Below are positions 277 through 61,072 of a stretch of DNA of 64,000 nt, in pieces. Source of the DNA: an uncultured delta proteobacterium (lineage in GTDB: Bacteria > Desulfobacterota > Binatia > UBA9968); assembly GCA_963771465.1 (NCBI GenBank), contig CAVYTU010000012.1, positions 1-64,000 of the forward strand, read 5' to 3'. Positions within the stretch are counted from its first letter, which is position 1, and each line of letters begins with the position of its first letter. The notes under the pieces are model-generated. The model saw only the letters and a program-made list of their open reading frames with translations. It had not been told where the DNA came from and searched no databases. Both the position numbers and the translations under genes were made by a program.

Positions 277-294
277 ATTGGACCAAAGTCCAAT
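277..294 (+). promoter_or_regulatory. Palindromic operator, copy 1 (ATTGGAC-CAAA-GTCCAAT), upstream of the fdn operon
   Basis: Perfect 7-4-7 inverted repeat; TATCGC at 317-322. Confidence 0.85.
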
Positions 295-406
295 GTACAA
301 ACTACTTTGCCTAGGCTATCGCAATCACAGAGTCGACGATCTTACTGAAGCTCTTGGTCAATCGCGCAGATCGACAACCCGCGTTTAGCCTCATACGGAG
401 GAAAAG

Positions 407-3400
407 ATGAAAGACAGGCATGAGGACGAGCGAAGGCCAGAAGACCACGATGATGCGAACAATCCCGCAGCGCCGCGTTCGACCCGCAGGCAATTTCTCA
501 AGGGACTGACCACCGGCACCGTGGCGATCGGCGCCTTGACCCAGGCCGGCTGCGCGCCGGCGATTCCGCCGCTCAAAACCCGCGGCGCGACCAACACGTC
601 GACCGTGTGCCCTTTCTGCGGCGTCGGCTGCGGCCAAGTGGTCTCCGCCCGCGCCGGTAAGGTAATCCACATCGAAGGCGATCCTCAGCATCCCATCAGC
701 GAAGGCACCTTGTGCAGCAAGGGAGCCGCCGGCATTCAGGTGGTGAACAACTCGCGTCGGCTGCAGAAGGTGCTTTACCGCGCGCCCGGCGGCGCGGCGT
801 GGGAAGAGAAGAGTTGGGACTGGGCGCTGCCGCGGATTGCCGCGCGTGTCAAACAAACCCGCGATAAAACTTTCCAGACCACAACCGAGGGGCGCACGGT
901 AAACCGCACCGAAGCGATCGCGTGCCTGGGCGGCTCGGCGCTCGATAACGAGGAAGCCTACGCCCTCGTAAAACTCATGAGGTCTCTTGGCCTGGTGTAC
1001 ATCGAACACCAGGCCCGGCTCTGACACAGCTCCACGGTCGCCGGTTTGGCGGCCTCCTTCGGCAGGGGAGCGATGACCAATCATTGGATCGACATGCTGA
1101 ACGCCGACGTCGTTCTGATCATGGGCGGAAATCCGGCGGAAGATCATCCCATCGCGATGAATTGGCTGGCCCGCGCCAAGGAGCAGGGCACCTATATCCT
1201 GCACGTCGATCCGCGCTTCAACCGCACCAGCTCGATCGCCGATGTGTTCGCGAAACTGCGCTCTGGCACCGACATCGCTTTTGTCGGCGGCATGATCAAT
1301 TACGCCATCGAGCACAACCGCATCCACGAAGAATACGTTCGCGAGTATACCAACGCGTCATGGATATTGGGCGACGATTACAATTTTTCCGACGGCCTTT
1401 TCGCCGGCTACGATCCGCAAAAACGGAGCTACGATAAATCGCGCTGGGCTTTTGCAATGGACGGGCAGGGGCGGCCGCGCCGCGACCCGACGCTCAAACA
1501 TCCGCGTTGTGTGTTCCAGTTAATGAAGCAGCACTTCTCCCGTTACAATGTCGACAAAGTTTGCAGCACCACCGGGACGCCGAAAGAAAATTATGTGAAA
1601 GTTTGCGATCTCTATACGTCGACGTTCGCTCCGGAACGCGCCGGCACATGGCTTTATGCCATGGGCACAGCGCAGCATAGCCACGGCACGCAGAACATCC
1701 GTTCCTACGCGATCCTGCAGCTGCTGCTTGGCAACATCGGCGTCGCCGGCGGCGGCGTCAACGCCATGCGCGGCGAATCCAACGTGCAGGGATCGACCGA
1801 TCAGGGGCTGAATTTCGACGGGTTGCCGGGCTACCTGCGGCTGCCGATCGAGAGCGATACCGATTTGAAAACCTATCTCTCGCGCGTGACGCCGACGAGC
1901 ATGGATCCGTCGAGCAGCGCCAACTGGCTGCAAAACACGCCCAAGTATGTCGTGAGTCTATTGAAAGCATGGTGGGGCGAGCACGCCAAGACGGAGAACG
2001 AATTCGACTTCGCCTACCTGCCTAAGCTTGGCCGTGGCTTTCAGGGAAAGGGTTACTCCTTCCTCGCGCTCACGCACGCGATGCTTGCCGGCGACCTGAA
2101 GGGCCTTTTCTGCTTCGGCCAGAATCCCGCGGTCGGCGGCGCCAACGCCCGTCTAATTCGCTCCGGATTGGATAAGCTTGAATGGCTGGTGGTCGCCGAT
2201 CTCTTCGAGCATGAGACCGCAGGCTTCTGGAAGCGGCCCGGCGCCGATCCGGCGAAAATTCCCACCGAAGTGTTTGTCCTGCCCGCCTCTTCCGGCGTCG
2301 AGAAAGAAGGCAGCATCGTTAACAGCGGGCGCTGGGTGCAGTGGCGCCACCGCGCGATCAAGCCGATCGCCGACTGCCGCCCCGATCTCGACATCGTCGA
2401 CGGACTGGTAAAGGCATTAAAACGCGCCTACGAAAAGGACGGTGTATTTCCCGAGCCGATCCGCCATCTCGCATGGGATTACGGCGAACATCCGGAACCG
2501 ACGCGGGTCACGCGGGAGTTGAACGGCCGCTTTCTTACCAACGTCGAAGAAAAAGACGGCAAGATCTTCGCGGCGGGCACCCAGGTGCCCGGGTTCGCGC
2601 AGCTGCGCGACGACGGCACCACGATGTCAGGCAACTGGATCTATTGCGGCAGCTTCACCGAGCAGGGCAATCTCGCGATTCGGCGCGACATGACCGATGC
2701 GACGAACAAAATCGGCCTCCATCCGAATTGGGCTTGGGTTTGGCCGATGAACCGGCGCATTCTGTACAATCGCGCGTCGGTCAATCGCAAAGGCGAGCCG
2801 TTCAATCCGCGCAAGTGGGTGATTCGCTGGAACGCGGAGAAGAAAGTATGGGAAGGCGATGTGCCGGACGGCGCCCTGCCGCCGGGCGAAATAAACCCAT
2901 TCATAATGCAGTCGTCGGGCGTGGGACACCTCTATTCGCCGGATCTCGCCGACGGTCCGTTCCCCGAACACTACGAGCCGGTAGAGAGCCCGGTGAAGAA
3001 TCCGTTTTCGAAAATCCAATCGAGCCCGTGCGCTGAAGTCTGGCAGTCGACCGAGTTCGACAAATACGGCACGCCGGCGGAGTTTCCGATCGTCGCGACG
3101 ACTTTTCGCGTTTCCGAACACTGGCAGACCGGCGCGATGAGCCGCAATATGCCTTGGCTTGTCGGTCTCGTGCCGAGTGCATTCGTGGAGCTTGGCACCG
3201 CGCTGGCACAGCGTCTCGGGATCAAGAGCGGCGACCGCGTGATCGTCAGCAGCGCGCGTGGGGCCATCGAAGTGTACGCGCTCGTCACCGAACGCTTCCA
3301 ACCGTTTTTCGTTGAGGGACAGATGGTCGATGAGATCGGCCTGCCATGGCATTGGGGCTACGCAGGCATCGTGCCCGGCGATATCGCCAATGATCTCACC

Positions 3401-3487
3401 GCCAGCGTCGGCGACCCGAATTCGAAGATTCCCGAGACCAAAGTTTTTCTCTGCAATCTGCGGAAAAAGCAAAGCGCGTCAGTTTAG
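407..3487 (+). CDS. fdnG: Formate dehydrogenase-N-type alpha subunit, selenocysteine-containing (Sec codon 1022-1024), Tat-exported molybdo/tungstoenzyme
   Basis: ORFs 407-1024 and 1046-3487 are in one frame: HQARL-UGA-HSSTVAGLAASFGRGAMTNHW (E. coli FdnG NQARVUHGPTVASLAPTFGRGAMTNHW). Also a Tat motif TRRQFLK, CPFCGVGC...C Fe-S motif, RGESNVQG and GPFPEHYEP. Confidence 0.96.
1036..1054 (+). promoter_or_regulatory. Bacterial SECIS element
   Basis: Stem GGUCGCC/GGCGGCC (7 bp, one G-U pair) with loop GGUUU, separated from the UGA by 11 nt, as in E. coli fdhF. Confidence 0.88.
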
Positions 3488-3521
3488 CGCAGCGCAACCG
3501 GAAAGCCTCGGAACGGATGAC

Positions 3522-3593
3522 TCACCACGAAGGACACTCAGACCACGAAGGGGAAAATAATTTTTTTCCTGTCCTTCGTGTGCTTCGCGGTGA
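3522..3593. repeat. REP-like intergenic hairpin (TCACCACGAAG...CTTCGCGGTGA)
   Basis: Nested inverted repeats CACGAAG/CTTCGTG around an A/T-rich loop between fdnG and the beta-subunit gene. Confidence 0.7.
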
Positions 3594-3639
3594 AATCGAG
3601 CGGTCGAAAGATTTCCGCTAGCGCGAAAGGGACCTGTAA

Positions 3640-4449
3640 ATGAGCACACCGAACGTTAAACCCAAGGCGATGATTCAGGACAATACCCGGTGCATCGGCT
3701 GCCGCGCCTGCATGGTTGCGTGCAAATCATGGAACGACCGGCCCGAGGACAAGACCGATTTTTTCGCCGGTTTAGGGTATCAAAACCCGCGCGACCTCGA
3801 TGCCAACAATTACACGCTCATCACTTTCAACGAGGTCGTCACCACCGAGAAGCCCGATTGGGTATTCGGGCGCCAGCTGTGCATGCACTGCGATCAGCCC
3901 GCCTGCGCCTCGGCGTGCCCGACTACCGCGATGTTCAAAACGGATCTCGGCCCCGTCGTGTTCGACGAGTCGCGCTGCATCGGTTGCCGCGCGTGCATGC
4001 AGGCATGCCCCTTCATCATTCCGAAATACGATTACGAGAGCTTCGCGCCGAAGATCCACAAATGCACGTTTTGCGCCGACCGCCTGGAAGTTGGACTCGA
4101 GCCCGCCTGCGCGACCGTATGCCCCACCGGCGCCATTAGCTTCGGCGACCGCGACGATATGGTTGTCGAAGCCAAGCGGCGCATCGCGAGCGCCCCCGGC
4201 GCCTACATTCCGGAAATCTACGGACTGGACGAAGTCGGCGGCACCAGCGTGCTGCATCTGTCATCCGTGCCGTTCGAAAAGATCGGCTACATTACCGGCC
4301 TGCCGAAAACGGCGATGCCGGACCTGACGCACCGCTGGCTGCGCGTCACGGCGCCGGTGTTCGCGGTCTTGTATGGGGTGTTTGGCGCGCTCAACTGGAT
4401 CGTGCGCCGGCGCATGCGCCGCCAAGGGCACGACGGAGAACACACATGA
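3640..4449 (+). CDS. fdnH: 4x[4Fe-4S] electron-transfer subunit (FdnH/HybA family) with C-terminal membrane anchor
   Basis: CIGCRACMVAC, CMHCDQPACASACP, CIGCRACMQACP and CTFC...CATVCP motifs; EVGGTSVL; C-terminal TM helix. Confidence 0.9.
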   Translation: MSTPNVKPKAMIQDNTRCIGCRACMVACKSWNDRPEDKTDFFAGLGYQNPRDLDANNYTLITFNEVVTTEKPDWVFGRQLCMHCDQPACASACPTTAMFKTDLGPVVFDESRCIGCRACMQACPFIIPKYDYESFAPKIHKCTFCADRLEVGLEPACATVCPTGAISFGDRDDMVVEAKRRIASAPGAYIPEIYGLDEVGGTSVLHLSSVPFEKIGYITGLPKTAMPDLTHRWLRVTAPVFAVLYGVFGALNWIVRRRMRRQGHDGEHT

Positions 4450-5627
4450 ACTGGCGCATCCGGCTTACCTGGTGGGACAAACTGCTGCTGGCCATTGTGG
4501 CGGTCGCCGCGGTCTTTGGCTTCGTGCGCTTCGCCACCGGCATCGGCAGCATCGCCAATATCAACAACGCTTATCCGTGGGGCTGGTGGGTCGGCTACGG
4601 CATCATGACGCTGATCGCCATCGGCGGCGTCGGCTTCACGATCACCGCTCTGGTGGAGATTTTAGGCGTGCACCGCTACCACTCTTTTCTGCGCCCGGCC
4701 GTGCTCATGGCTTTTCTTTGCTATGCCAGCGCGATCACCATGCTCATGGTGGAGCTTGGCCGGCCGTGGATGGTCTGGATGGTCCTCGTCTCCTGGGCGC
4801 CGACCTCCGCGTTGTACGAAGTCGGCTGGTGCGCGTTTTTGTATCTCACGGTGCTCGCTTTGGAATTCGCGCGGGTGCCGCTCGAGGAGGCCGGCTGGAA
4901 GCGCGCATTTCGTGTCGTCAGCGCGATTTACATCCCAATCATGCTCCTCGGTGTTACGCTGTCGCATCTCCATCAGTCATCGCTCGGCACGCTGATGACG
5001 CTCATCCCGCACAAAATCAACGCCCTGTGGTGGTCGGATAATTTGCCCTTGCTTTATCTTTTCTCCGCGATGATGGCCGGTCCGGCGCTGGCGATTCTCG
5101 AACACCTCGCCGCGGCCCGTTGGCTCGGCTTTGCGCCGCGCATGGATTTGCTCGCCGGGTTGGCGCGCATCGAAACCTGGCTCGTGGGGCTGTTCCTGGC
5201 CTTTCAGATGGGCGATCTGTTCTACCGCGGCGCTGAGGGCGCATTGTTCACCGCGAGTTGGTTCGCGTTGTCGTTCTGGGTCGAGATCGGCTTCGGTCTG
5301 CTGCTGCCGTTTGTGCTGCTGTTGATGCCGGAAGCGCGCGCAAGCCGCACAGCGCTGGCAACCGCGTGCAGCCTAATCCTCGCGGGCGTCTTGCTGCACC
5401 GTCTGAATGTGGCCGTGATCGGCTTGCGCGTGCGCCACTGGGAAACCTACGTGCCGTCGATCGGCGAGGTAACCATCACGCTCGGGATCACCGCGGCGGC
5501 GCTCTTTGTGTTTGGCTGGCTTGTGCGCATCTTGCCGATACACGAGGAATTGCCGGCGCCGCAGACGCGCCAACCTGTGGCCGCACATCCGGTCGCAACA
5601 CTGCACGGCGCGCAAGGAGTAACGTGA
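4446..5627 (+). CDS. NrfD/PsrC-family membrane anchor (HybB-like)
   Basis: N-x-N-x-x-YPWGWW, ELGRPW, SALYEVGWC and LHQSSLG motifs; about 10 TM helices; ATGA overlap with the upstream gene. Confidence 0.9.
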   Translation: MNWRIRLTWWDKLLLAIVAVAAVFGFVRFATGIGSIANINNAYPWGWWVGYGIMTLIAIGGVGFTITALVEILGVHRYHSFLRPAVLMAFLCYASAITMLMVELGRPWMVWMVLVSWAPTSALYEVGWCAFLYLTVLALEFARVPLEEAGWKRAFRVVSAIYIPIMLLGVTLSHLHQSSLGTLMTLIPHKINALWWSDNLPLLYLFSAMMAGPALAILEHLAAARWLGFAPRMDLLAGLARIETWLVGLFLAFQMGDLFYRGAEGALFTASWFALSFWVEIGFGLLLPFVLLLMPEARASRTALATACSLILAGVLLHRLNVAVIGLRVRHWETYVPSIGEVTITLGITAAALFVFGWLVRILPIHEELPAPQTRQPVAAHPVATLHGAQGVT

Positions 5628-5628
5628 T

Positions 5629-6189
5629 ATGATACCGGAACGAGCGCCGCGCCTGCCTGCGTTTCGCATCGTTGTGATGCTAGTGATTGCCGTGAACCTG
5701 ATCCTCACGATCGCGGTTATTACGCAAATACGCGATCTACAGCAGCGCGTTGCAAGCTTACCGCCGAATCTTGCGACCAAGGTCGACGTCGCGATGTTGC
5801 GGCCGCTTCGAGTGCGCGAGATTCTGATGCAGAACTGCGTCGAGTGCCACAGCTCACGCCGCCTCGGCACGACGATCTCGATGGAGCCGGGGCAAATTCA
5901 GAGCACCGTAGAACGAATGCAAGCCCATCCCGGCGCCAATATTCCAGCGAGCGAACTGGAGCGGATCAGCGCTTCGCTAATGGTCGCGCGCTGCGCGCGC
6001 TGCCATGGCGAGGAGACGCTCAACTTGATGGTGCTTAAAACGCAGCCCGAGCGCGTCGCGACGATCCGCCGCATGGCCGCGCTTCCCGGCTCCGGGGTGC
6101 GCGCTGACCAGGCGCTCGCGGTTGCACAAGCGTTCGAAAAACTGATTCATGAAACGGACGGCGGTAGGTCAGGTGGTGGCCAGAAGTAA
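5629..6189 (+). CDS. Membrane-anchored diheme c-type cytochrome with two tandem domains
   Basis: N-terminal TM helix; CVECH and CARCH, each followed by T(V/I)xRMxxxPG. Confidence 0.85.
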   Translation: MIPERAPRLPAFRIVVMLVIAVNLILTIAVITQIRDLQQRVASLPPNLATKVDVAMLRPLRVREILMQNCVECHSSRRLGTTISMEPGQIQSTVERMQAHPGANIPASELERISASLMVARCARCHGEETLNLMVLKTQPERVATIRRMAALPGSGVRADQALAVAQAFEKLIHETDGGRSGGGQK

Positions 6190-7473: not shown

Positions 7474-7749
7474 ATGAATGAGGCTGTTCTGACAGCTGCT
7501 GAGAAACGGGTTCTGACTCAGGTTTCCCGATCGCTGACCAATCGCGAGATCGCCTTGAGTTTGGCGATCAGCCCCGCCACGGTCAAGCGACACCTGGAAA
7601 ATATTCTGCGCAAGCTAGGAGTGCGTAACCGCGTCGAAGCGGCGATATTTCACTTGAGCATGGCTACGCGGTGCACGTCCAACGATTGTCCACTGACTGC
7701 ATGGCGGAAATGGCACGAGAACAGGAGAAATGGGCCGATCGGCCAATAG
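7474..7749 (+). CDS. Stand-alone LuxR/NarL-family HTH regulator (no receiver domain)
   Basis: LTAAEKRVL...LTNREIA..L.ISPATVKRHLENILRKLGVRNRVEAA; C-terminal C-x4-CPL. Confidence 0.88.
   Translation: MNEAVLTAAEKRVLTQVSRSLTNREIALSLAISPATVKRHLENILRKLGVRNRVEAAIFHLSMATRCTSNDCPLTAWRKWHENRRNGPIGQ
7730..7747 (+). promoter_or_regulatory. Degenerate copy of the palindromic operator (ATGGGCC-GATC-GGCCAAT) upstream of mtrA
   Basis: Same 7-4-7 geometry ending in CCAATAG; TGC-TATAAG -10 at 7771-7776. Confidence 0.6.
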
Positions 7750-12377: not shown

Positions 12378-13028
12378 AATCCAGGACATTCCCGGTGGCA
12401 GCGACACGGTGCTGTGGCGTTGGTCTCAAACGGTCGCATCCGGCTGGTGCTCGTGAAGTCGAGGGGACGCGCAGAACGCTGACCCTTGACGACGCATTCG
12501 CCATCGCGGATACCTAATGACGCCCTTCACGCCTTCCAATACTGCGGGCCGCGGCGGTCGGCGATTTGCACTCCGCCATACTTTACGATTCGAAAACCAT
12601 TGCCCCAACCATGACCGCGTTAGTGCGGATCCCGTGCGGATCATTACGCGGAGATCTCCATCGCTAGTGGACTGTAACATCAACTTAACTTCAAATCTTC
12701 GCAGGCCTCAGGGCGAACGGCAACGGAGTTCCTTTCGTGGTGAGACGCTTGTCGAACCATGAACGTTAACGCGAATCATTGTTACAGTTCACTAGCTCAT
12801 ACTTTGCTTAGCGGATTAGCGCTAAGCGCGGCGTCGACCCATTTCTGCCGATTGGGCACCATTTTTGGAATCACTTTCTTCGCGGTCTTCACCGCAATTT
12901 CCCTGCCGGCGTGCTTGCCATAGCTGACTCAGAAACTCGGAGAAAATAGGCATTGCGCTGACTGAAGCTCTCGTTGCTTGTGTGGCGATCTTACCAACAT
13001 ACGAGCTCGGGCTGCTTGCCGGTACCGT

Positions 13029-13046
13029 GTGGGACTAAGGTCCAAT
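13029..13046 (+). promoter_or_regulatory. Palindromic operator (GTGGGAC-TAAG-GTCCAAT) upstream of the lipoprotein-DASS pair
   Basis: Matches the other copies; TAGACG-N17-TACAAG. Confidence 0.8.
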
Positions 13047-13138
13047 AGACGCGCTTTTCGCTTCTCGTTACAAGTCATCGTAAAGTCACATCGACTCGGC
13101 GGTTCATGGTATCGCTCCGATCCGGAGGGAAGAGCGAA

Positions 13139-13708
13139 ATGATTTCTCGACAGCATCGGTTTCTGTTGCCCGGCTGGCGATGGCCAACGCTCGTCGCTCT
13201 CCTACTAACGGCGGCGTGCGGCCAGTCAGGTGGCACGCCGCAGACTCCTCTCGCCAACGAATGGCACGCGTTCGAGGGCACGTGGACTGCAACAGGTACG
13301 CGCCGGACGCTGCACCTGGGCGCGAATGACCGTGCGGGCATCTTCGAACTGACAGGATCAGTACTGCTCAGCGGGGCACAGCGGCCGGCGGTCGGGTTCA
13401 GGGCGCAGGCGATCGGCTTCTCCGACAGCCGCACAGGCATGCAAGGACGCTCTGTCTGGACCGACGAGCGCGGCGACATGGTTTACAGCGAGTTGAGTGG
13501 CGAGTTCGTCGGTACTGGCAACCATATTGTGGGCACGTTCATCGGCGGGACAGGCCGTTACATTGGTGTAACCGGCGACTACAGTTTCCAGTGGCAGTAC
13601 GTGGTCGATTCAGAGGATGGTGCGGTGAGCGGACGGGTCGTCGACTTCAAGGGCCGGGCGCGGTTAGGCCAATCCGCTACGGCGCCTGTAGCAAGAGCCG
13701 GCGGATGA
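13139..13708 (+). CDS. Hypothetical lipoprotein, beta-rich
   Basis: LLTAAC lipobox; GGTGRYIGVTG motif; ATGA overlap with the DASS gene. Confidence 0.75.
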   Translation: MISRQHRFLLPGWRWPTLVALLLTAACGQSGGTPQTPLANEWHAFEGTWTATGTRRTLHLGANDRAGIFELTGSVLLSGAQRPAVGFRAQAIGFSDSRTGMQGRSVWTDERGDMVYSELSGEFVGTGNHIVGTFIGGTGRYIGVTGDYSFQWQYVVDSEDGAVSGRVVDFKGRARLGQSATAPVARAGG

Positions 13709-15120
13709 GTGTAGTCCCTGCCGACTTCCGCCAGCTGGGCAAACAAGCCCTCTCATTCGCCCTAGTCCTCGGCGTCTGGTTTGCGCCGATCCCGGCCGGA
13801 CTGAGTAGGGAGGCCTGGCACCTTTTCGCCGTTTTTGCGGCGGCGATCTTCTCGATCATCGTAAACGCATTTCCGCTCCTGACGGCCTCGCTACTCGCCG
13901 TGGGCGCAGTTGTGCTGACCGGCACCGTGGACCCGGCCAAGGCATTTGCTGGCTTTGCGAATTCGAGCGTGCTTCTGGTCGTGGTCGCGTTCCTGGTAGC
14001 AAATGCCGTGGTGAAGTGCGGCCTCGGCCGTCGCATCAGCCTGCTCGTGGTGAGCGCATTCGGACGGTCCACGCTCGGACTGGGTTACAGCATCTTTCTT
14101 ACCGATGCGCTGATCGCACCGGCGTTTCCGAGCAATACGGCGCGCGCCGGCGTGCTTTACCCGATCATTCTTTCCCTCGCCCAGAGCGCCGGTTCCACGC
14201 CGGAAGATGCAGAGAGACGCCGTCTGGGCGGTTATCTCATGTTCTGCGGCATGGCGAGTTTAAGCGTCTCGTCGGCTCTATGGCTCACAGCAACTTCCGC
14301 CAATCCGGTCGGCGTATCGCTGGCGGCGCAATCCGGGGTGAAGATTGCCTTCGGCACCTGGCTGCTGGCTGCGTCGGTTCCTGCACTGGCGACCATTATT
14401 CTGCTCCCTTTGATCCTTTCCAGGCTGTTCCCACCAGGCGTGACCGACACGCCCGATGCGCCCGCGCTAGCGCGTAAGGAGCTGCAGAGGATGGGGCGGC
14501 TCGCGCGCGACGAGTGGATCGTCGCGGTGACTTTTGCGGTCATGGTGACCGGATGGATAATGGCGGACACTCTGAAGCTCAGCCTCCCTGCGGTGGCGTT
14601 CGCCGGCCTGGGCGTGCTCCTCGCGACCAACGTCCTGACGCTCGATGACATCAATTTACAAGGCGGTACTCTGGCGACCTTTCTCTGGCTCGCGGTGCTT
14701 TTCGCGTTGAGCGGCCAGCTCAACGAGCTCGGTTTCATGGGTTACGTCGGCGGGAAGCTTACCGCGATGCTCGAGGGCATCGCCTGGCCGGTCGCCTACG
14801 TCGTTTTGCTGGTGCTCTACGTGCTGATGCACTATATGTTCGTGAGCCAGACGGCGCAGGTCCTCGCGCTGTTCGGCGTGTTCCTCGATGTCGCCGTGCG
14901 CACTGGAGTGCCCGCATCCCTGATGGCATTCGCACTGCTGTTTGCCAGCAGCTACTTCTCGACGATTACCCCGCAGGGCGGCAGCCAGAATGTCATCTTC
15001 GTTGGCAGCAACTACTTGACTCAGGGCGAGCTTTACCGCCTCGGCCTGCTGACTACGGGGTTTTGCCTACTCGTGTTCCTGGTGCTGGGAACGCCTTGGT
15101 TGCTTTTCGTCGCAAGGTGA
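13705..15120 (+). CDS. DASS-family di/tricarboxylate (anion) permease, CitT-like
   Basis: PSNTARAG, LGRRI, TATSANP; about 12 TM helices. Confidence 0.92.
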   Translation: MSVVPADFRQLGKQALSFALVLGVWFAPIPAGLSREAWHLFAVFAAAIFSIIVNAFPLLTASLLAVGAVVLTGTVDPAKAFAGFANSSVLLVVVAFLVANAVVKCGLGRRISLLVVSAFGRSTLGLGYSIFLTDALIAPAFPSNTARAGVLYPIILSLAQSAGSTPEDAERRRLGGYLMFCGMASLSVSSALWLTATSANPVGVSLAAQSGVKIAFGTWLLAASVPALATIILLPLILSRLFPPGVTDTPDAPALARKELQRMGRLARDEWIVAVTFAVMVTGWIMADTLKLSLPAVAFAGLGVLLATNVLTLDDINLQGGTLATFLWLAVLFALSGQLNELGFMGYVGGKLTAMLEGIAWPVAYVVLLVLYVLMHYMFVSQTAQVLALFGVFLDVAVRTGVPASLMAFALLFASSYFSTITPQGGSQNVIFVGSNYLTQGELYRLGLLTTGFCLLVFLVLGTPWLLFVAR

Positions 15121-15239
15121 CGCCGGCGGGCATAATGCTACGACACCGCGCACGCGTTCGAGAAGCTGATCGGCGACGTACCAAAATAGTGAAGTGCCCG
15201 CGGTCCAGTCACGCCAACAGTTTACGGCCAGAGGTAGAT

Positions 15240-15257
15240 GTTGGACTAAGGTCCAAT
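15240..15257 (+). promoter_or_regulatory. Palindromic operator (GTTGGAC-TAAG-GTCCAAT) upstream of frdC
   Basis: Matches the other copies; TAGACA-N17-TAGAGC. Confidence 0.85.
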
Positions 15258-15367
15258 AGACAGCATCTCAATCCCGCGATAGAGCAGAAATACCTTCAGG
15301 CGCATGCGCTCGAGAAACTGATCAATAAGCGATCGCGCCAACGTAGGCATAGACAAGGAGGAATACC

Positions 15368-16150
15368 ATGAACAACCAAGTCGATGTCATTGCCGGAACC
15401 GGCCTGGACCTCAAAGCGCGAAAGAGTCACTGGCCGGCGCGCTTGGATCTTGTCCAGAGCGCGAGCGGATTGTTCTTGGGCCTTTTCATGTGGGGCCATA
15501 TGGCTTTCGTGTCGACAATCCTGATCAGCAACGATGCCATGTGGTGGGTGACCAAGATGTTCGAGGGACAGTTTATTTTCGGCAAAGCCTATTCCGGCAT
15601 CGTGGCTGCCGTCGTCGCCCTGGTTTCGTTTCTATTCGTGCTCCATGGCTTGCTCGCCATGCGAAAATTTCCTGCGAACTTTCAAGAATACAAAAGTTTC
15701 GCCGGCCACCGGCAAATGATGCGCCATGAGGACACCACGCTCTGGTGGGTGCAAGCGTGGACCGGTTTTGCCCTCTTCTTTTTGGCTTCGGTTCATCTCT
15801 ACCAGATGCTCATGCATCCCGGCGATATCGGCCCCTACGAATCGGCGGAGCGCGTGTGGAGCGGCCGCTGGTGGCCGCTCTATCTGGTCCTGTTGTTTGC
15901 CGTCGAGCTGCACGGCGGCGTGGGTCTCTACCGGTTGGCGGTAAAGTGGGGCTGGTTCGAAGGCGAAGATCCGAATCGGACGCGCGTGATGCTCAAGAGG
16001 TTCAAATGGGCAATCACAGTATTTTTCCTGACGCTCGGTCTGCTCACACTGGGGGCGTACATGAAGCTCGGCCACGAACGCCGCGATCGGCTCGGCGAGC
16101 GCTACGTGCCATCCTGGGCCGCGCCTTCGGGTTCACCGGCACGGCATTAG
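15368..16150 (+). CDS. frdC: Fumarate reductase diheme cytochrome b subunit (Wolinella type B)
   Basis: QSASGLFLGLFMWGHM, AMRKFP, YLVLLFAVELHG.VGLYRLAVKWGWF; four His heme ligands. Confidence 0.93.
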   Translation: MNNQVDVIAGTGLDLKARKSHWPARLDLVQSASGLFLGLFMWGHMAFVSTILISNDAMWWVTKMFEGQFIFGKAYSGIVAAVVALVSFLFVLHGLLAMRKFPANFQEYKSFAGHRQMMRHEDTTLWWVQAWTGFALFFLASVHLYQMLMHPGDIGPYESAERVWSGRWWPLYLVLLFAVELHGGVGLYRLAVKWGWFEGEDPNRTRVMLKRFKWAITVFFLTLGLLTLGAYMKLGHERRDRLGERYVPSWAAPSGSPARH

Positions 16151-16174
16151 CGAAACATAGTCTTGGCAAAGGCG

Positions 16175-16319
16175 AGAATTCGAAGGACGAAATCCGAAAT
16201 TCGAAACAATTTCAAATGAATCAAAAGAGAAAAAATTCTAAACAATGTTCATCCGGCTTTCGTGTTTTGGATTTTGCCTTCAGTTTGTTTCGAAATCCGA
16301 ATATCGAAATTCGGATTTG
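16175..16319. repeat. AT-rich heptamer-repeat palindromic element (CGAAATC/CGAAATT...TTCGGATTT)
   Basis: Tandem CGAAATY units followed by their complements between frdC and frdA. Confidence 0.7.
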
Positions 16320-16351
16320 TTCACAGTGTTTCTAACGAAGGAAGTTAAGCC

Positions 16352-18331
16352 ATGAAAATAATTTACACAGACGTTTTGGTTATCGGCGGCGGTCTCGCAG
16401 GTTTGCGCATCGGCATCGGCGCCAAACGGCGCGGCCATGATGTGATCATTCTGTCATTGGTGCCGCCTAAGCGCTCTCATTCAGCCGCGGCGCAAGGCGG
16501 CATGCAGGCAAGCCTCGGCAACGTCATCAAGGGCGAAGGCGACAACGAAGACGTGCACTTCGAAGATACGGTGCGCGGCAGCGACTGGGGCGCCGACCAG
16601 CAAGTGGTGCGCATGTTCGTCGATACCGCTCCCAAAGCGGTGCGCGAGTTGGCGGCGTGGGGCCTCCCTTGGAGCCGGATAACCAGAGGCGATCGCGACG
16701 TCATCATCAACGGGCAAAAAGTCACCATCACCGAGCGCGACGAAGCCCATGGGCTGATCGCTCAGCGGGCCTTCGGCGGCACCAACAAGTGGCGCACCTG
16801 TTATGTTTCGGACGGCACCGGGCACGCCATGCTCAATACCATGAGCGATCAGGCGATTGCCCAGAAGATACCGGTGCATGAACGAGCCGAGGCGATTGCT
16901 TTGATCCACGACGGCAGTCGTTGCTACGGCGCAATCGTGCGCAATCTTGTTACCGGCGAATTGCTAGCCTACGTCGCCAAGGCCACCGCCATTACCGGTG
17001 GCGGCGCGGGGCGACTATACCGCGTGACCACTAATGCGGTGATCTCCGAAGGGATTCCCACTGCCATTGCACTCGAGACCGGTATCGCTTCGCTCGGCAA
17101 TATGGAGGCGGTGCAGTTTCATCCGACGCCGGCCTTTCCTCCTGGAATTCTGCTCACCGAGGGCGCCCGCGGCGACGGCGGGCTATTGAAAGACGTCGAC
17201 GGTCATCGCTTCATGCCGGATTACGAGCCGGAGAAAAGAGAGCTTGCCTCGCGCGACGTGGTCTCGCGCCGTATGGAAGAGCACATCGCCAAAGGCAAGG
17301 GCGTGAAGTCGCGATTTGGCGACCATCTCTGGCTGGATATTACTCTGTTGGGCGAGTACCACATCAAACACAACCTGCGCGAAGTTTATGAAATCTGCCA
17401 CTATTTTCTCGGCGTCGATCCGGTGAAGGAGTGGGTGCCGGTGCGGCCGGCGCAGCACTACACCATGGGCGGCGTGCGCACCAACCACACCGGTGAAAGT
17501 CCGACGCTCAAGGGGCTGTTTTCCGCGGGCGAGGCGGCCTGCTGGGACATGCATGGATTCAACCGCCTGGGCGGCAACTCGGTGGCCGAGACGGTGGCGG
17601 CCGGCATGATCGTCGGCGAGTTCATCGCTGATTTCTGCGAGCGGTCCGACTCGGGGGCGAGTATCCCCACCAGTCTGGTTCAGGAAACCTTGCAGCGCGA
17701 GCAAGCGAAGATCGATGCCTTGATCGACGGCCGGGGCACGGAGAACGCCGCCGCGATCATGGCCGAGATGCAGACGATCATGACTAATAAGGTTGGCATC
17801 TTTCGCAGGGGCCCAGTGTTGGAGGAGGCTGTGCACGGGCTGCAGCAGCTTCTGTTGCGCAGCCGCAACATCGGCCTGCGCTACAAGGCGCGCGGCGCCA
17901 ATCCGGAGCTGGTGACGGCCTACCGGGTGCAGAAAATGCTCAAGATGGCGCAGTGCGTCGCCTACGGGGCGCTCCAGCGAACCGAAAGCCGCGGTGCTCA
18001 CTTCCGCGAGGACTTTCCGCGCCGCAACGACGCCGAATGGCTGAACCGCACACTGGCGATATGGAAATCGGAAAGCGACACCCTGCCGTCGCTCGCCTAC
18101 GAAAAACTCGATGTCATGAAAATGGAGCTAGCGCCGGGCTGGCGCGGCTACGGCGCCAAGGATCACATCGATCATCCCGATACGCCCAGGCGTCTCGCCG
18201 AGATCGAAGCGCTCAAGCAGCGCCGCGACGGCGCCGATCGTTTCGCGGTGCAAGAGCAGCTGATGCCCTACGACCATATGTTGCCCAAACCTTTGCGCGG
18301 CAGGAATGAACGGATCGACGAAAGATTGTGA
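16352..18331 (+). CDS. frdA: Fumarate reductase flavoprotein subunit
   Basis: [16 protein letters not shown] (covalent FAD His), [28 protein letters not shown]. Confidence 0.97.
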
Positions 18332-18431
18332 AGCCCCGCCAGGAGCCCGGCTAGAGAAACGTCGCGATAGGATTTAGTTGAGGTGCTTGGAGTCTCTTTA
18401 CGTTCGTTAGAAGGAGAAAGGAGCATCTGTC

Positions 18432-19829
18432 ATGGCTGAGAATCGGATCGAAAAAGATACCATGGGCGACATTGCGGTCCCGGCGGACCGCTACTGGGGA
18501 GCGCAGACCCAGCGTTCGCTGAAATATTTCCAGGCCGGGGCGGGGCGGGACACGATGCCGAGAGAGCTTATCAAAGCCCTTGGTATCCTGAAAAAGGCCG
18601 CGGCCATGGCCAATGTCGAGCTGAAACTTTTAGATAAGGAAAGAGGCGACATGATCGCTCAGGTCGCCGACGAAGTTGTCTCGGGAAAGCTGGACGAGCA
18701 CTTCCCGTTGGTCATTTGGCAGACCGGCTCGGGCACCCAGACCAACATGAATGCCAACGAGGTGATCAGCAACCGGGCCATCGAAATTTCCGGCGGCGTA
18801 ATGGGGAGCAAAAAACCGATTCACCCCAATGACGACGTCAACAAAGCGCAAAGCTCCAACGACACCTTTCCCACCGCGATGCATATCGCTGCGGTGGAAG
18901 TTCTGGACGGTCTGGTCGAGGCGTTGAAAGATTTGAAGAAGCACTTGGAGGACAAGGCGAGTGCCTATGGAAAGGTAATCAAGATCGGCCGCACGCACTT
19001 GATGGACGCAACGCCGCTCAGCCTCGGGCAGGAAATCTCCGGTTGGGCGCAGATGATGAACAACGACCTACAGCGCATCGCAATGACATTGCCTGGTCTT
19101 TATGAGCTGGCCATCGGCGGCACCGCAGTGGGCACCGGACTCAATACACATCCCGATTTCGCGGCCAAAGCCGCGGCGAAGATTGCCGAGTTGACCAAAC
19201 AGCCGTTCGTCAGCGCGCCGAACAAGTTCGAGGCGCTGGCCGGCCACGACGCGCTTGTCTTTGCCCACGGCGCGCTCAAAACGCTCGCCTGCTCTCTGAT
19301 GAAGATCGCCAACGACGTGCGTTGGCTCGCCTCCGGCCCCAGAGCGGGCCTGGGCGAAATCAGCATCCCGGAAAACGAGCCGGGAAGTTCTATCATGCCG
19401 GGCAAAGTGAATCCGACGCAGAGCGAGGCGCTGACGATGATCTGCGCGCAGGTGTTGGGCAACGACGTGGCTATCAACATCGGCGGCGCCAGTGGCAACT
19501 TCGAGCTTAACGTCTTCAAGCCGCTGATGATCCACAACTTCATTCATTCGGCCAAGCTTTTGACCAAGGGCGTCGAGGGCTTCACGCACCATTGCATCGC
19601 GGGCCTCCAGCCCAACGCAGCGCGCATCGACGAGCTGATGAAGAAAAGCTTGATGCTGGTCACCGCGCTCAATCCACACATTGGCTATGACAATGCCGCC
19701 AAGATCGCCAAGAAGGCCCATGCCGAAGGCACGACACTCAAGGAAGCAGCAGTGGCGCTGGGCCTTGTGAAAGCTGAGGATCTCGACAAGTGGATCAAGC
19801 CCGAAGAAATGATCAAGCCGGGGATGTGA
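18432..19829 (+). CDS. fumC: Class II fumarate hydratase
   Basis: [34 protein letters not shown]. Confidence 0.97.
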
Positions 19830-19839
19830 AATCCGTAAG

Positions 19840-19942
19840 AGTGACAAGGGTCGAGTGGCGAGTGGGGAGTACATCAGCTTTCAAGGTTTCAATGTTCAGG
19901 TTTCAGTATAACCGAAACGTGACACCCGATCTCTCGACTCGA
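19840..19942. repeat. Heptamer-repeat palindromic element between fumC and frdB
   Basis: GTCGAGT-GGCGAGT...CTCTCGACTCG enclosing TTTCAAG/TTTCAAT/GTTCAGG/TTTCAG repeats. Confidence 0.55.
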
Positions 19943-19976
19943 GGAAAAGCGGTTTTTGCAATGAAGGAGACTGACA

Positions 19977-20717: not shown

Positions 20718-20768
20718 TGTGCGATTCAGGCTGGCAACGTCCGTGCAAGCGGTTAAAAGGAGTCTCCC

Positions 20769-39250: not shown

Positions 39251-39347
39251 TCGAAAGTGGTCTGGCGCATAGAGAGCAGCGGGTCGCGAATGCCATCAGC
39301 TTGAGCGCTCAAACACGGTGACGAAAATCTCAGAAGGGGATGAGACC

Positions 39348-40091: not shown

Positions 40092-40231
40092 CTATCAACA
40101 GAAATGACGCCCTCGTCCTAGCTCTGATGCGGGATGATCGATGTACTGGTTATCGCGGATCGATGGATGACTGAGTAGCGCATGTCGTAGTTCTTCTGGG
40201 CACGTGGAAGTACAAAAAAAGGAGCAGCCAC

Positions 40232-41155: not shown

Positions 41156-41404
41156 AAGCGTGCATGAGTTTTTCCGCAACCTGCGATAGATTCGAAGTTA
41201 GCGCTCAAGAGCGGAGGCGTCGCCCGTATTACTTTCGTTTACAAACTCTGCGACTGTTCGCCGGAGCGCTGGCCCGCTATCGGGGAGTGCGGCAAAGTCC
41301 GACATGGAAGAAAGTCGAGGCGTTCTGGGATAAATTTCTAGGCGGTGAGATCTGGTATAGACGGTTCTTCGGCGCGCGGTAATCTATCCTGCTCGGAGGA
41401 GCCT

Positions 41405-42709
41405 ATGCGAACAAGAACATCTTTGATCTTTCTCGTGGGTGCCGTGCTTGGGGCGGCGGTGGCCAGCCGGCGATTGCTCTCATTGGTGGGAGCCATCACA
41501 GAACGGCCACTGTGGGGCTATGGCGCCTCGCTAAGACGCCCGCAGGTTGCACCCGAGGATCTCCTTAGACGGCGCAGCACGGCCGATGAGCTGTCCGAAG
41601 CAGCCCGCGAGTTGTTCGGCCGCCTGGTTGAACGCATCAAGGCCAAGTACGACCAGGACGCCGCCAGCGGGCGGAAAGAACCACCGTTGGTCGATATTCT
41701 GATCATCTCAGGTGGGGGCGACTGGGGAGCTTTCGGCGCGGGATTTCTCAAAGGTTGGCAGAAGGTGCCAGTCGTCTCATCCGCTGGCCAAGCCGGAATT
41801 CGACGCCGTGACTGGCGTAAGCACGGGAACGCTGATCGCCCCGTTCGCATTTTTGGGCGACGAGCAGTCGATCGAACAGATCGTAAACATGTATCGCAAC
41901 CCGAAGAAGGATTGGGTGAAGCAGCGCGGATATCTTTATTTCTTGCCGGACAACATTTCGTTCGCCGAGGTGCCTGGACTGGAGCGCGAGATACGCGACG
42001 CACATCACCGTGGACATGCTTGCGCCGGATCGCGAAGGCGGGCGCTGACGGCCGCATTTTGTTAGTCAACACGACCGAGCTTGACGTAGGACAGCCGCGG
42101 GTGTTCGACCTGGTGGCGGAAGCGCAGCGGGTTGCCGATTCGGCAGACCCTGAGCGCGTTCACAACATTATACTCGCCTCGGCGGGGATTCCCGGCGCGT
42201 TTCCGTTCCGCATGATCGACGGAGAACTCTACGTCGACGGTGGGGTGACGGGAAACATCATCTACGGCGGTAGAATAGCGGAAGAGGACAACCTGCCGGC
42301 CCTATGGCAGAAAGCTTATCCGAACCACCGCGGTCCTAAGTTTCGCTTCTGGGTGATTTTCAACAACCAGTTCCGTCCGGTGCCTAAACCGGTGGCGCCT
42401 AACTGGCGGGCAGTCATTCAACGCAGCCTGGAGACATCCACGCGCGCGGCTACGGCGACCGCGGTGCGGCATCTCTTCGCGATGGCCGAGATCTCACGGC
42501 TCAAGCGGAAGGCCGATGTGGAGGTGCGTATCGTGTCAATTCCCGACGACTGGATTCCACCCGCACCGACACCTTTCCATAAAGAGACCATGAACAATCT
42601 CGCGGATCTCGGCGAAAAGATGGGCGCCGACCCGGCGAGCTGGAGCAGCGAGCCGCGCGAATCTTCCACTGCGCAGCACGTTAGCGAAGCTGGAACGAAA
42701 CCATCCTGA
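41405..42709 (+). CDS. Patatin-like phospholipase (compensating frameshifts near 41775 and 42005-42020)
   Basis: SGGGDWGAFGAG, VTGVSTG (other frame), YVDGG. Confidence 0.88.
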   Translation: MRTRTSLIFLVGAVLGAAVASRRLLSLVGAITERPLWGYGASLRRPQVAPEDLLRRRSTADELSEAARELFGRLVERIKAKYDQDAASGRKEPPLVDILIISGGGDWGAFGAGFLKGWQKVPVVSSAGQAGIRRRDWRKHGNADRPVRIFGRRAVDRTDRKHVSQPEEGLGEAARISLFLAGQHFVRRGAWTGARDTRRTSPWTCLRRIAKAGADGRILLVNTTELDVGQPRVFDLVAEAQRVADSADPERVHNIILASAGIPGAFPFRMIDGELYVDGGVTGNIIYGGRIAEEDNLPALWQKAYPNHRGPKFRFWVIFNNQFRPVPKPVAPNWRAVIQRSLETSTRAATATAVRHLFAMAEISRLKRKADVEVRIVSIPDDWIPPAPTPFHKETMNNLADLGEKMGADPASWSSEPRESSTAQHVSEAGTKPS

Positions 42710-58857: not shown

Positions 58858-59202
58858 CGATTATCCCCCAATTTCATTTTTGGTCCACTCGTGTTGCCAA
58901 GTGCCGATACGCCTTCGCGAGGGATCCATTTTTAAGTCTCGGTTGAATTGCGTACACCACCAAAGGCGACGATATCGGATCGACCATATATACCAAACGT
59001 CGGACGCTCTTCAACTTACTAAAAAGTAATGATGCGCCATTTGCCGAGTAGTAAAGAGTGGTGGCAAGACCTACAAACGACATCTCCTCCCGAACATCCC
59101 GGCGAGATTGAACTACTGAAGCGATGAAAAATTCAATTCAACGGAAGCAAACAGAGGCAAGATGTTAAACCCTATTTGGGGGCCCGGGGAGTGCTGCTTC
59201 GT

Positions 59203-59220
59203 ATTGGACTAAGGTCCAAT
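59203..59220 (+). promoter_or_regulatory. Palindromic operator (ATTGGAC-TAAG-GTCCAAT)
   Basis: Perfect, extended by one pair (TATTGGAC/GTCCAATA); TATGTG at 59243. Confidence 0.85.
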
Positions 59221-59469
59221 ATCTAAATGTTTGACCCTGGCATATGTGTGACTATGATCTAAAAAAAACTAACAATGACCGACCGCAATAACCGGTATGA
59301 GCGACAGCGGATTTCGCGGCGTAGTGCGGGAAGTAGAATAGCACATTAGTAAATGAGTGAACGAGTCAAAAATTAGTAGAGTTACGAAAGCGCAGATTAA
59401 CAAAATGTTCGGCGACGGTAATTCCCATACGGACATAAATCCAACCACCAAAACCCTACTGGACAATTC

Positions 59470-60300
59470 GTGAACGTAACTAGAGGCGAAATAACCGTCG
59501 GTAGATTCCTGATTCCATACCGGCTCTTTGGTCAAGGTAGCCGAATCTTGGTCTGTGTGAACGGTGCCCAGCAAACCATGGCGGCCTGGAGGCCTGTCGT
59601 AACCTATTTTTCAAAAGATTACAAATTATTGCTCTTCGATTTTCCCGGTCAGGGGCGAGCTCAAATCATCTTTGGTTCCGCCGTTGTTACCTTGGATGAG
59701 CAGGTCGAAGTCTTAAATCGAGTTCTCTCAGCACAAAATGCCCCTGACAAAGCGATCGTTGCCGGTGCCTCTTGGGGTGGGGTCGTGGTTGCGGCTTTTG
59801 CTTCGCGCTTTCCTCACTTAGTAGACAAAATCATATTGGCCAGTTTTGGCATCCGGGTAAACGAAAAGTTGGTGCAGGCGATTCGAGAAGGCCAACAATT
59901 GAATGGAACTGCAACCGGGGAACAGGTGGCCGATGTAATCATCAAGTACTTCGGACAGCATCTAAACGAAGCCTTCAAAAAGAGAATGCATGATCAATTT
60001 AAAAATATCAAAAAGGAGCATCTAGAGAATTTTCATGCGCATGGCCAGGTACTCAAAACGACCAAGCATATCAACGAAGTTGTCGACCTGCGTAGCATCA
60101 AAGCGCAGACACTAATTATCAATGGCGAAATGGATACCGTCATGGATTTCGACGATATTACGCTTGCGGCGGCCCAGATAGCGAATTGCGTGGTGAAAAT
60201 TGTACCGGGTGTGGGGCATTTCTTGCACAATGAGAGCGATGATGTCCTCGCTATTTATAGAGATTTTCTTTCCTTACCGTCGGAACTTCAACTGAGTTAG
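59470..60300 (+). CDS. Alpha/beta hydrolase-fold protein, RhlA/PhaG-like
   Basis: VNGA, LFDFPGQG, ASWGG, ING..D, G.GHFL..ES. Confidence 0.85.
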   Translation: MNVTRGEITVGRFLIPYRLFGQGSRILVCVNGAQQTMAAWRPVVTYFSKDYKLLLFDFPGQGRAQIIFGSAVVTLDEQVEVLNRVLSAQNAPDKAIVAGASWGGVVVAAFASRFPHLVDKIILASFGIRVNEKLVQAIREGQQLNGTATGEQVADVIIKYFGQHLNEAFKKRMHDQFKNIKKEHLENFHAHGQVLKTTKHINEVVDLRSIKAQTLIINGEMDTVMDFDDITLAAAQIANCVVKIVPGVGHFLHNESDDVLAIYRDFLSLPSELQLS

Positions 60301-60390
60301 GTTTAGTTATTTCTTTCAAAAGTGCGACGGTAGATAAAGTTCACGGGTGAAAGAGTCGAAATGACAAAGTAGCAGGAAGATCCTAGAGAA

Positions 60391-60774
60391 ATGAAAATTG
60401 CACTCAAACGGTCTGCTCGTTGGTGGCGCCGCGATGCCATCCACGTGGCGACACTTTTCTTGGCCGTGCTCCTGCAGGTCTCGGGCTGCGCCAGCGAGCC
60501 AGCTCCGTCCTACGCACCACCACCGAGTACTTTTGATCGCTCTTGGAGCGCCGCTATCGCGGCGGCGCGGGATGAGGGTGTGCAGATTCTTTCCGAAGAC
60601 CGGGCGAGCGGAGTCATCATCGGCAACAGAGGCGAACAGGAGGTCACGATCAACGTCCGCAATCAGGCGGACGGCAGTGTGCGCATGGAATTTGGCGCGC
60701 GAGGTCCAAAGGGCTCGGACCCCGGCTTGGCCGGTCGAGTCTCGCGGGCCTACGACCGGAGAATGGGGCGGTAG
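60391..60774 (+). CDS. Small hypothetical lipoprotein
   Basis: VSGC lipobox; FDRSW.AA..A; DRASG.I.G. Confidence 0.7.
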   Translation: MKIALKRSARWWRRDAIHVATLFLAVLLQVSGCASEPAPSYAPPPSTFDRSWSAAIAAARDEGVQILSEDRASGVIIGNRGEQEVTINVRNQADGSVRMEFGARGPKGSDPGLAGRVSRAYDRRMGR

Positions 60775-60876
60775 AGGCAAGAGTCGGCTGCCGAAAGAAT
60801 GAAGTTGACAGAGAGCAGATCGGTGAGAGCCGGTGGCGTTTGCGCTTATAGGCACCCGCCGAGCACGCGAGTGGGT

Positions 60877-60894
60877 GTTGGACCAAAGTCCAAT
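60877..60894 (+). promoter_or_regulatory. Palindromic operator (GTTGGAC-CAAA-GTCCAAT)
   Basis: Matches the other copies; TG-C-TAGCGT extended -10 at 60917. Confidence 0.85.
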
Positions 60895-61072
60895 AGTCGC
60901 AACCGTACGCGTTTGCTAGCGTGATGACGCGACGCACTCGTTCGGCATCGACGACGACCGCGGCCGCGGTTTAGCGAAGACCATTCTCTGCAGTTTACTA
61001 CGCCGATTTTTCCAGATATGTTTCTAAATTCTCAAAGGTGTTTGATGAGAGGAGGACGAACATGGTGAGGAT

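Follow-up and report, generated by a model that had tools for sequence, protein, structure and literature searches.

We analyzed an inverted repeat (hereafter the box) that recurs upstream of respiratory and envelope genes in the first 64 kb of contig 12 (the window) of a Binatia genome (G000; 6.9 Mb in 19 contigs, 99.4% complete by marker genes), along with the genes that follow it and the response regulator likely to act on it. Pattern scanning of the window revealed perfect copies of TTGGAC-N4-GTCCAA with core starts at 278, 15241, 38546, 59204 and 60878, and a copy with one mismatch at 13030. All six were found on the + strand with a YAAR spacer, and these six strong sites, which had been listed in a preliminary description of this DNA, were recovered both by the pattern scan and by the weight matrix presented below. 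When up to two mismatches were allowed, 10 matches were detected in the window compared to 1.98 expected, and none of 100 shuffles gave 10.

The anatomy of the box was derived from 43 aligned sites of four genomes, each oriented by its spacer. Column counts over these sites conformed to a 16-base pair (bp) inverted repeat of the form xxxxAC-N4-GTxxxx, and the palindrome was found to reach 20 bp (T-A-TTGGAC-YAAR-GTCCAA-T-A). The centre of the spacer was AA in 43 of the 43 sites once spacer-oriented, and the base before GGAC was T in 41 of 43. Box positions 17 to 22 read TAtaCr, similar to a weak TTGACA; the next conserved bases were T40 and A41, with G38 two bases earlier in an arrangement resembling an extended -10 element. 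The T-A dinucleotide occupied positions 40-41 in all six window sites and in 30/43 sites overall, and was within one base of this position in 41/43, compared to 1/43 in the mirrored orientation. By this count the asymmetry of the spacer reliably points along the direction of transcription, and the fixed spacer orientation noted previously, with YAAR on the transcribed side, was observed throughout. Each box ended where a -35-like hexamer (TAnACr/TAtaCr) started, with the last two bases of the extended palindrome shared between them, and a -10-like TAnnnn hexamer followed 17 bp further on. The TA located 23 nucleotides (nt) past the last T and the 17-nt spacer, as first described, held at the six window sites. 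When measured to the -10-like TA only, the centre of the box was 31.5 bp before the first base of this hexamer. The earlier view of the geometry as class II-like is supported, as the box directly abuts the putative -35-like hexamer; class II activator sites overlap the -35 and are centred about 41.5 bp upstream of the transcription start.

The six promoters and the genes that follow them were all on the + strand. Promoter 1 (276..322; score 37.2) includes the core TTGGACCAAAGTCCAA at 278-293, a -35-like TGTACA at 294-299 and a -10-like TATCGC at 317-322. It precedes genes for formate dehydrogenase alpha, an iron-sulfur subunit, an NrfD-type membrane subunit and a c-type cytochrome (407..6189, by Pfam), which, based on strand and spacing, appear to form one operon. 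The formate dehydrogenase alpha gene (407-3487) was read as two open reading frames linked through an in-frame TGA (1022-1024; context ...HQARL*HSST...), which is probably a selenocysteine codon. Promoter 2 (13028..13074; score 32.6), with the one-mismatch core TGGGACTAAGGTCCAA at 13030-13045, a -35-like TAGACG and a -10-like TACAAG at 13069-13074, is followed by genes for a 200-amino acid (aa) protein with no known family and a DASS (Na_sulph_symp) transporter (13106..15120, by Pfam).

Promoter 3 (15239..15285; score 37.7; core 15241-15256, -35-like TAGACA, -10-like TAGAGC at 15280-15285) precedes 15368..25320, over which a single transcript is predicted to extend. This region encodes the C, A and B subunits of fumarate reductase/succinate dehydrogenase, two lyases (a class II fumarase and a second, fumarase/aspartase-like one), a DASS transporter, a cyclic nucleotide monophosphate (cNMP)-binding membrane protein and a 235-aa protein of unknown family, and was found to be syntenic with 614786-624716 of contig 14 in the relative G019 at 89-95% amino acid identity. 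At 23048-23701, within this fumarate respiration operon, lies the gene of a 217-aa protein with a POPDC-like membrane part and a cyclic-nucleotide-binding domain and without a helix-turn-helix (HTH). Promoter 4 (38544..38590; score 34.0; core 38546-38561, -35-like TATCAA, -10-like TAGGGG at 38585-38590) is followed by genes for MlaC, a MIP aquaporin, an NMT1/TAXI-type binding protein and a patatin-like protein (38636..42709). Promoter 5 (59202..59248; score 37.2; core 59204-59219, -35-like TATCTA, -10-like TATGTG at 59243-59248) precedes a single target gene, for an alpha/beta hydrolase (59470..60300), with the start codon 266 nt past the box. Promoter 6 (60876..60922; score 37.1; core 60878-60893, -35-like TAGTCG, -10-like TAGCGT at 60917-60922) precedes genes for a DUF4410 protein and a radical SAM enzyme with DUF4070 (61073..63453). 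Of the co-regulated promoters proposed previously, those of formate dehydrogenase, of fumarate respiration, of mlaC-aqpZ-TAXI, of the alpha/beta-hydrolase and of the radical SAM operon (with its DUF4410 gene) were thus found to bear the box.

Census and conservation of the box

A weight matrix was built from 37 sites of three other genomes, with the sites of the window genome kept out of training. By this approach, exactly 10 sites with scores of at least 32 were detected in the whole genome, namely the six window sites and C9:79912, C9:109342, C14:444814 and C19:16019(-) (contig:position). The next score was 19.9 and was due to the same boxes in reverse reading. Perfect copies of the pattern numbered eight in the 6.9 Mb, of which five were inside the 64-kb window. 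The match at 11028 (two mismatches) scored below 14 in the matrix. A degenerate seventh copy had been proposed at 7730, upstream of a porin-cytochrome (mtrA) module (7731..7746, + strand; TGGGCC-GATC-GGCCAA); this site departs from the core at three positions, has a spacer of the wrong sequence and scored below 14. Since it fails the matrix, six promoters are supported and not seven. The flanks of two of the sites outside the window (C9:79900-79985 and C14:444802-444887) were near-identical for at least 70 nt around the boxes at C9:79912 and C14:444814, revealing a duplicated promoter; one copy is located before an MlaC-like gene and the other before a gene for a 1049-aa penicillin-binding-protein-like product.

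The scan of relatives suggested in the preliminary description was extended to 40 genomes (24 of the same genus, 5 of a sister family and 11 of family f3), with one unpublished genome, G005, included in the tallies. The box pattern with its trailing T was detected in 18 of the 24 same-genus genomes, 2 of the 5 sister-family genomes (as single copies with atypical spacers) and none of the 11 genomes of family f3, and a reversed-pattern control was near zero across the 40 relatives. Five well-assembled members of the genus (G007, G008, G012, G015 and G022) had no box. Among 300 other genomes of the phylum, five boxes were found in four genomes, at one or two copies each.

Within the genus the boxes were found to cluster on an island of about 160 kb. 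In G019, 23 sites (at most one mismatch) were detected within C14:510-672 kb, and comparable clusters were found on G003:C12 and G004:C9. In the window genome, the genes on either side of the G019 cluster are direct neighbours (C14:455.1-455.9 kb); the cluster is thus an insertion, and the regulon is carried by a variable genomic island. The window itself was syntenic with G019:603-657 kb. When promoter 1 was compared to the orthologous G019 promoter, the box was identical at 16/16 positions and the 40 nt upstream at 11/40; similar values were obtained for promoter 3 and G019:614671 (box 16/16, upstream flank 12/40) and for promoter 6 and G019:584374 (box 16/16, upstream flank 9/40). Conservation of the box in three orthologous promoters, with the upstream sequence at chance level (9-12/40), is a clean phylogenetic footprint. 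The site orthologous to promoter 2 was found in G003 (C12:304621), with similar flanks. The box is almost certainly a real and strongly selected cis-element.

Besides the respiration genes, targets in G019 included MlaE, MlaA, a DUF3604 protein, a sulfatase, an OprB porin, a phospholipase D and a glycoside hydrolase. Two G019 boxes 28 bp apart and facing outwards, C14:651364(-) and C14:651392(+), are placed to drive the phospholipase D and a GH63-like glycoside hydrolase divergently. The window orthologues of this pair (43529-45079 and 31025-33277) have no box, and regulon membership therefore differs between species. The left end of the G019 island (C14:510082-510424) carries a 97-aa C-terminal HTH remnant of the candidate FixJ-like regulator described below (helix MEKTIKVDR), followed by a perfect box at 510409; this appears to be what is left of a regulator-box module that was duplicated or recombined where the island begins. 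Several genes of the window were split or truncated, including a DASS transporter in two overlapping frames (25358-26432), a G6PD of whose C-terminal domain only the beginning is present (45359-46459), a 127-aa COX1 fragment (48254-48637), a cytochrome b in two frames (50016-51709) and an MFS transporter in two frames (54308-55530). These could be assembly frameshift errors or decaying genes of the island.

A candidate regulator and its operator

In the islands of relatives, a candidate regulator gene was found 3' of a multi-PAS HisKA kinase gene and was followed by a box and then by a receiver-only gene, the last of which was present after the box in all three genomes inspected. The regulator of the G004 island displayed receiver (REC) plus GerE-HTH architecture (Response_reg 1.2e-26, GerE 7.4e-18), and the receiver Asp in its LVLDVxMP stretch aligned with the matching FixJ residues. 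When compared to solved structures, the candidate matched StyR at 1.2e-58 (1yio), FixJ at 2.1e-43 (5xso), NarL at 5.1e-17 and DevR at 9.6e-14. A NarL/DosR-family activator had been proposed at the outset; the best candidate does belong to the NarL/FixJ (GerE-HTH) superfamily, but it is of the FixJ/StyR type and not a DosR orthologue. The catalytic core of the kinase matched that of FixL at 2.3e-53. One of its PAS domains matched the haem PAS of DosP (4e-14) and of FixL (1.4e-12), and a His in it lines up with that of the DosP 'PAHP' stretch, a putative haem ligand; the G004 kinase instead begins with a MASE1 domain. An oxygen or redox signal is conceivable for this kinase, at somewhat less than even likelihood.

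The candidate was found in 13 of the 24 genus genomes, all 13 of which bear the box, and in none of the 6 box-free genomes. A perfect box was located 70-235 nt past the regulator gene, on the same strand and with the same TATACAG continuation, for 10/10 primary orthologues (at least 60% identity, with G005 excluded: G002, G003, G004, G009, G010, G014, G018, G019, G020 and G024). All ten shared the helix G-T-[VG]-E-K-T-[IV]-K-V-H-R, and in G009 the regulator-adjacent box was the sole perfect match in the genome. Paralogues in the genus with other helices were associated with other sequences: EITVK with no TTGGAC box, EKTIKFH with CTGGAC..GTCCAG and ERTIKAH with TTGCAC..GTACAA.

Covariation of helix and box was examined in metagenome contigs by use of an alignment of 13 candidate proteins as the query. 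The 80 loci analyzed were the best of at least 600 matches, and five were dropped as the helix could not be aligned. Among the 18 loci with an EKTxK helix, a box (at most two mismatches, AA orientation) was detected within 800 nt in 11 of the 14 that had at least 300 nt of downstream sequence. For the 57 loci with other helices, by contrast, no box was found downstream in any of the 54 with enough DNA, and only 1 of the 57 had a box anywhere in the locus. A strict box, defined by the form xxxxAC-N4-GTxxxx with at most one mismatch in the arms and a position no more than 450 nt downstream of the gene, was present in 25 of 70 loci with at least 150 nt downstream. Lys at helix residue 2 was paired with GG at half-site positions 3-4 in 8/8 strict boxes, and GG was absent from every non-Lys locus with a strict box. 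Ile at this residue was paired with AT in both arms (6/9), and Ala with TT, AG and others. The AA centre had the same orientation in 25 of 28 boxes irrespective of the helix, and a receiver-only gene came next in 41 of the 60 loci with room for one. Taken together, the receiver-only gene and the link of box to helix point to a kinase-regulator-box-receiver module that is family-wide, with a box that tracks the helix. The boxes are very probably operators of a GerE-type dimer, and their regulator is probably the EKT[IV]KVHR protein of FixJ/StyR type, as judged from helix, neighbourhood and distribution. Among the metagenome loci (L053, L059, L060, L064, L071, L113, L125 and others), EIT[IV]K regulators were followed by CTATAC-YAAR-GTATAG and EATVK regulators by CTTTAC-TAAA-GTAAAG, which suggests an operator code common to the family in which the AA centre and its orientation stay fixed.

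Several observations weigh against this assignment. The regulator, the kinase and the receiver-only gene were not found in the assembly of the window genome by tblastn or genome search; the best tblastn match had 36% identity over the receiver domain only, and in the six-frame translation an EKT[IV]K helix occurred solely in a different regulator, a core one, on contig 15 (C15). No regulator match was obtained in the box-bearing genomes G006, G011, G013, G016 and G023, of which G006 is 99% complete and G011 has 24 pattern matches. For the five boxes in four genomes of other families, the regulator was detected in the fetched stretch for one only, with two of the contigs shorter than 5 kb. Three of the 14 EKTxK metagenome loci with enough downstream DNA were without a box, and the relatives are not independent samples, such that the phyletic counts overstate the support. 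The -10 assignment, activation and the nature of the signal are predictions.

With regard to the window genome, the contig starts inside a gene for an NrfA-type cytochrome c nitrite reductase, of which the 3' end is retained (3..215, + strand; Pfam Cytochrom_C552 on the G019 protein). Only residues 439-503 of the 510-aa G019 NrfA homologue were present anywhere in the genome. Thus, DNA upstream of box 1 is missing and the island continues past the assembly, the break being 277 nt upstream of the first box. In G019, the kinase-regulator module was located in the island region upstream of the corresponding point, 84 kb away, and we predict that the module of the window genome lies in the DNA missing from the assembly. 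When contigs of four out of 24 soil-type sequencing runs were compared to the G019 kinase-regulator locus at 80% likeness, only short pieces of conserved domains were found, mostly less than 90% alike; no piece spanned the locus, and the comparison is therefore uninformative on the module in the window strain.

Alternative regulators and modes of action

A resident GerE-type regulator could serve the boxes of the window genome in place of the missing candidate, and two were considered. The C15 core regulator (SEKTVKTH) carries the only EKT[IV]K helix of the assembly and shares the K-x-x-K recognition residues, but its orthologues (77-81%) were found in the box-free genomes G007, G008, G012 and G015 and in 10 of the 11 box-free genomes of family f3, and no box was near the gene. 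As a general answer it was rejected, being present in box-free genomes and families. The NarL-type pair at C9:93031-94640 is accompanied by a HisKA_3 kinase and two PAS/sigma-54 activators and lies 13-16 kb from the boxes C9:79912 and C9:109342, with orthologues (at least 55% identity) of the C9 regulator detected only in box-bearing genomes (G003, G005, G006, G014 and G017-G020), including G006, which is without the FixJ-like gene. The C9 regulator was nevertheless not found above 47% identity in the box-rich genomes G002, G004 and G011, its helix (VKTIETHR) has no second Lys, and its orthologues had no perfect box nearby in the genomes checked (on other contigs in G019, G017 and G006, and 74 kb off in G003). 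We consider service by a resident regulator unlikely. The 91-aa stand-alone GerE/LuxR HTH protein at 7474..7749 (+ strand), put forward previously as the regulator with the porin-cytochrome module as a seventh regulon member, is the only HTH gene product of the window and is of the right superfamily (GerE, 60.8 bits). Its orthologues were found in the box-free genomes G012 (70%) and G015 (65%) and not in the box-rich G002-G006, G011 and G017, and its helix is PATVKRH. The protein was rejected on this phyletic pattern. The module fared no better: besides the failure of the 7730 site in the matrix, no box was detected at up to one mismatch in 12 MtrB-based loci of other Binatia; two relatives (MtrB of 76% and 68% identity) have none within flanks of up to 10 kb on each side where the contig allowed, and the G019 island has neither MtrA nor MtrB. 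The combined proposal is thus highly improbable. Two regions observed around the resident regulators are described here in their own right. At C9:87175-99195, two PAS-rich sigma-54 activators (1210 and 1179 aa), the HisKA_3 kinase and two NarL-type regulators lie between two boxes. At C15:139240-143201, the core EKTVK regulator and its kinase lie between two copies of a small lipoprotein-like gene pair; one product, of 127 aa, is the same in the two copies, and the second, of about the same length, is highly similar.

The nature of the element was also weighed. Class II placement is typical of FNR, and both the geometry and the anaerobic targets resemble FNR regulons. The inner 14 bp of the box (TGGAC-N4-GTCCA) has the GA..TC spacing of TTGAT-N4-ATCAA, and four CRP-type HTH genes are present on C17 of the window genome. 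By contrast, no CRP-type HTH (HTH_Crp_2) gene was found inside or close to the G003, G004 and G019 islands, the nearest being 1.47 Mb off on G004:C9, and the box covaries with a GerE-type helix; an FNR/CRP-type site is very unlikely. As for the mode of action, a dimer beside or partly over the -35 could instead block RNA polymerase until a signal arrives. The overlap of the extended palindrome with the -35-like hexamer would permit this, and EL222, of the same HTH type, acts as a repressor if its site is put within a promoter (PMC5001607). The box, however, was never located between the -35 and -10; its end always coincided with the initial base of a poor -35 (TAtaCr compared to TTGACA), as in activator-dependent promoters. 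Spacer orientation was likewise fixed relative to transcription in 43/43 sites, which would be expected for a complex that has to face the polymerase, where orientation is defined from the spacer itself and the count of T-A serves as the directional control. A repressor operator thus seems improbable, and the promoter architecture argues that activation rather than repression probably takes place at the boxes.

Proposed system and comparison with known regulators

As a whole, the data are probably best explained by boxes that act as operators of a FixJ/StyR-branch regulator with a FixL-like kinase, island-borne in one Binatia genus. The FixL-like multi-PAS histidine kinase would phosphorylate the dimeric EKT[IV]KVHR response regulator, which would then bind TTGGACYAARGTCCAA in preference to the CTATAC variant. 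The bound dimer, sitting some 31.5 bp before the -10 hexamer, would touch RNA polymerase in class II fashion, and ten promoters (six in the window) would be switched together, for formate dehydrogenase, fumarate respiration and C4-dicarboxylate uptake, Mla lipid transport and aquaporin, the hydrolase and radical SAM. The conserved core module has the order kinase, regulator, box and single-domain receiver protein. More tentatively, the island of about 160 kb may be a transferable low-oxygen-lifestyle unit with its own FixL/FixJ-type switch and a private operator. Within one genus this operator may have spread from a single ancestral site (regulator, box and receiver gene) to 10-23 promoters, such that respiration and lipid remodelling of the outer membrane would be under one regulator directly, without a FixK relay. 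Across the wider FixJ/StyR family, a single helix residue may set half-site positions 3-4 (Lys, GG; Ile, AT; Val, AA).

If true, this relation could be read as a code, with which orthogonal pairs of regulator and operator might be predicted or built, and the covariation of helix and half-site could aid operator prediction for the thousands of response regulators that have yet to be studied. The island would also offer a clear case of a regulon that has grown. Binatia are abundant uncultured soil and sediment bacteria, for which this would be a first regulon and candidate sensor-regulator pair for formate-, fumarate- and nitrite-linked respiration. A full-text literature search on Binatia response regulators returned nothing on gene regulation, and a search with the box half-sites returned nothing on such a regulator among titles and abstract openings.

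A two-component regulator at class II sites is a well-known kind of system. In the classical oxygen-sensing cascade of rhizobia, FixJ acts on very few promoters and hands control to FixK, a CRP/FNR protein. The present system is like FixL/FixJ in its regulator (FixJ 5xso, 2e-43; C-terminal domain 1x3u, 4e-14), its FixL-like kinase core and its low-oxygen respiration targets. It differs in the helix (PRTVEVHR in FixJ compared to EKTIKVHR) and in having boxes directly on 10-23 promoters and an island with no CRP-type gene. StyR/TodT of Pseudomonas are likewise REC plus GerE proteins, with a 16-bp 6-4-6 palindrome containing ..AC-N4-GT.. and with the KV of the helix (KVHR) in common; StyR-like regulators recognise ATAAAC-N4-GTTTAT via Lys175, Val176 and His179 (PMC5874301). 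By contrast to the candidate, helix residue 2 of StyR is Val instead of Lys and the half-site ATAAAC instead of TTGGAC. The TodS/StyS double kinase, aromatic catabolism and a single promoter also stand against the FixL-like multi-PAS kinase, respiration and envelope functions and many promoters found here.

The likeness to DosR/DevR of Mycobacterium tuberculosis (box TTSGGGACTWWAGTCCCSAA) that had been pointed out at first is real at the level of the operator. The 12-bp core matches the published DosR core, with GGAC-TWWA-GTCC compatible with GGAC-YAAR-GTCC, and the consensus string quoted earlier occurs in the literature. Both systems involve many promoters of a hypoxia-type response, which is putative here. 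The outer bases differ (SG/CS compared to TT/AA), DevR matches the candidate far below StyR and FixJ (1e-13 compared to 1e-58 and 2e-43), and the host is a diderm soil bacterium; a DosR-type system with a 20-bp box, GGGAC half-sites and a DosR orthologue was not found. DosS and DosT are GAF-haem kinases, and the candidate kinase is of the HisKA/FixL type. DosR contacts bases through Lys179, Lys182 and Asn183 (PMC4082495), and these lysines share the i, i+3 spacing of the EKTIK lysines, with a register taken from residue numbering alone. EL222 has a nearly identical helix (SEKTVKMHR compared to EKTIKVHR) and binds RGNCY-WW-RGNCY, two half-sites with two A/T pairs between them (PMC4428443); by sequence comparison only, GGACY-AA-RGTCC fits this consensus exactly. 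It differs in its LOV input, where the candidate has a phosphorylated receiver, and in tolerating far more variation than the near-invariant 16-20 bp box. The placement next to polymerase that we propose for the box-bound dimer is of the same type as that of LuxR at luxI.

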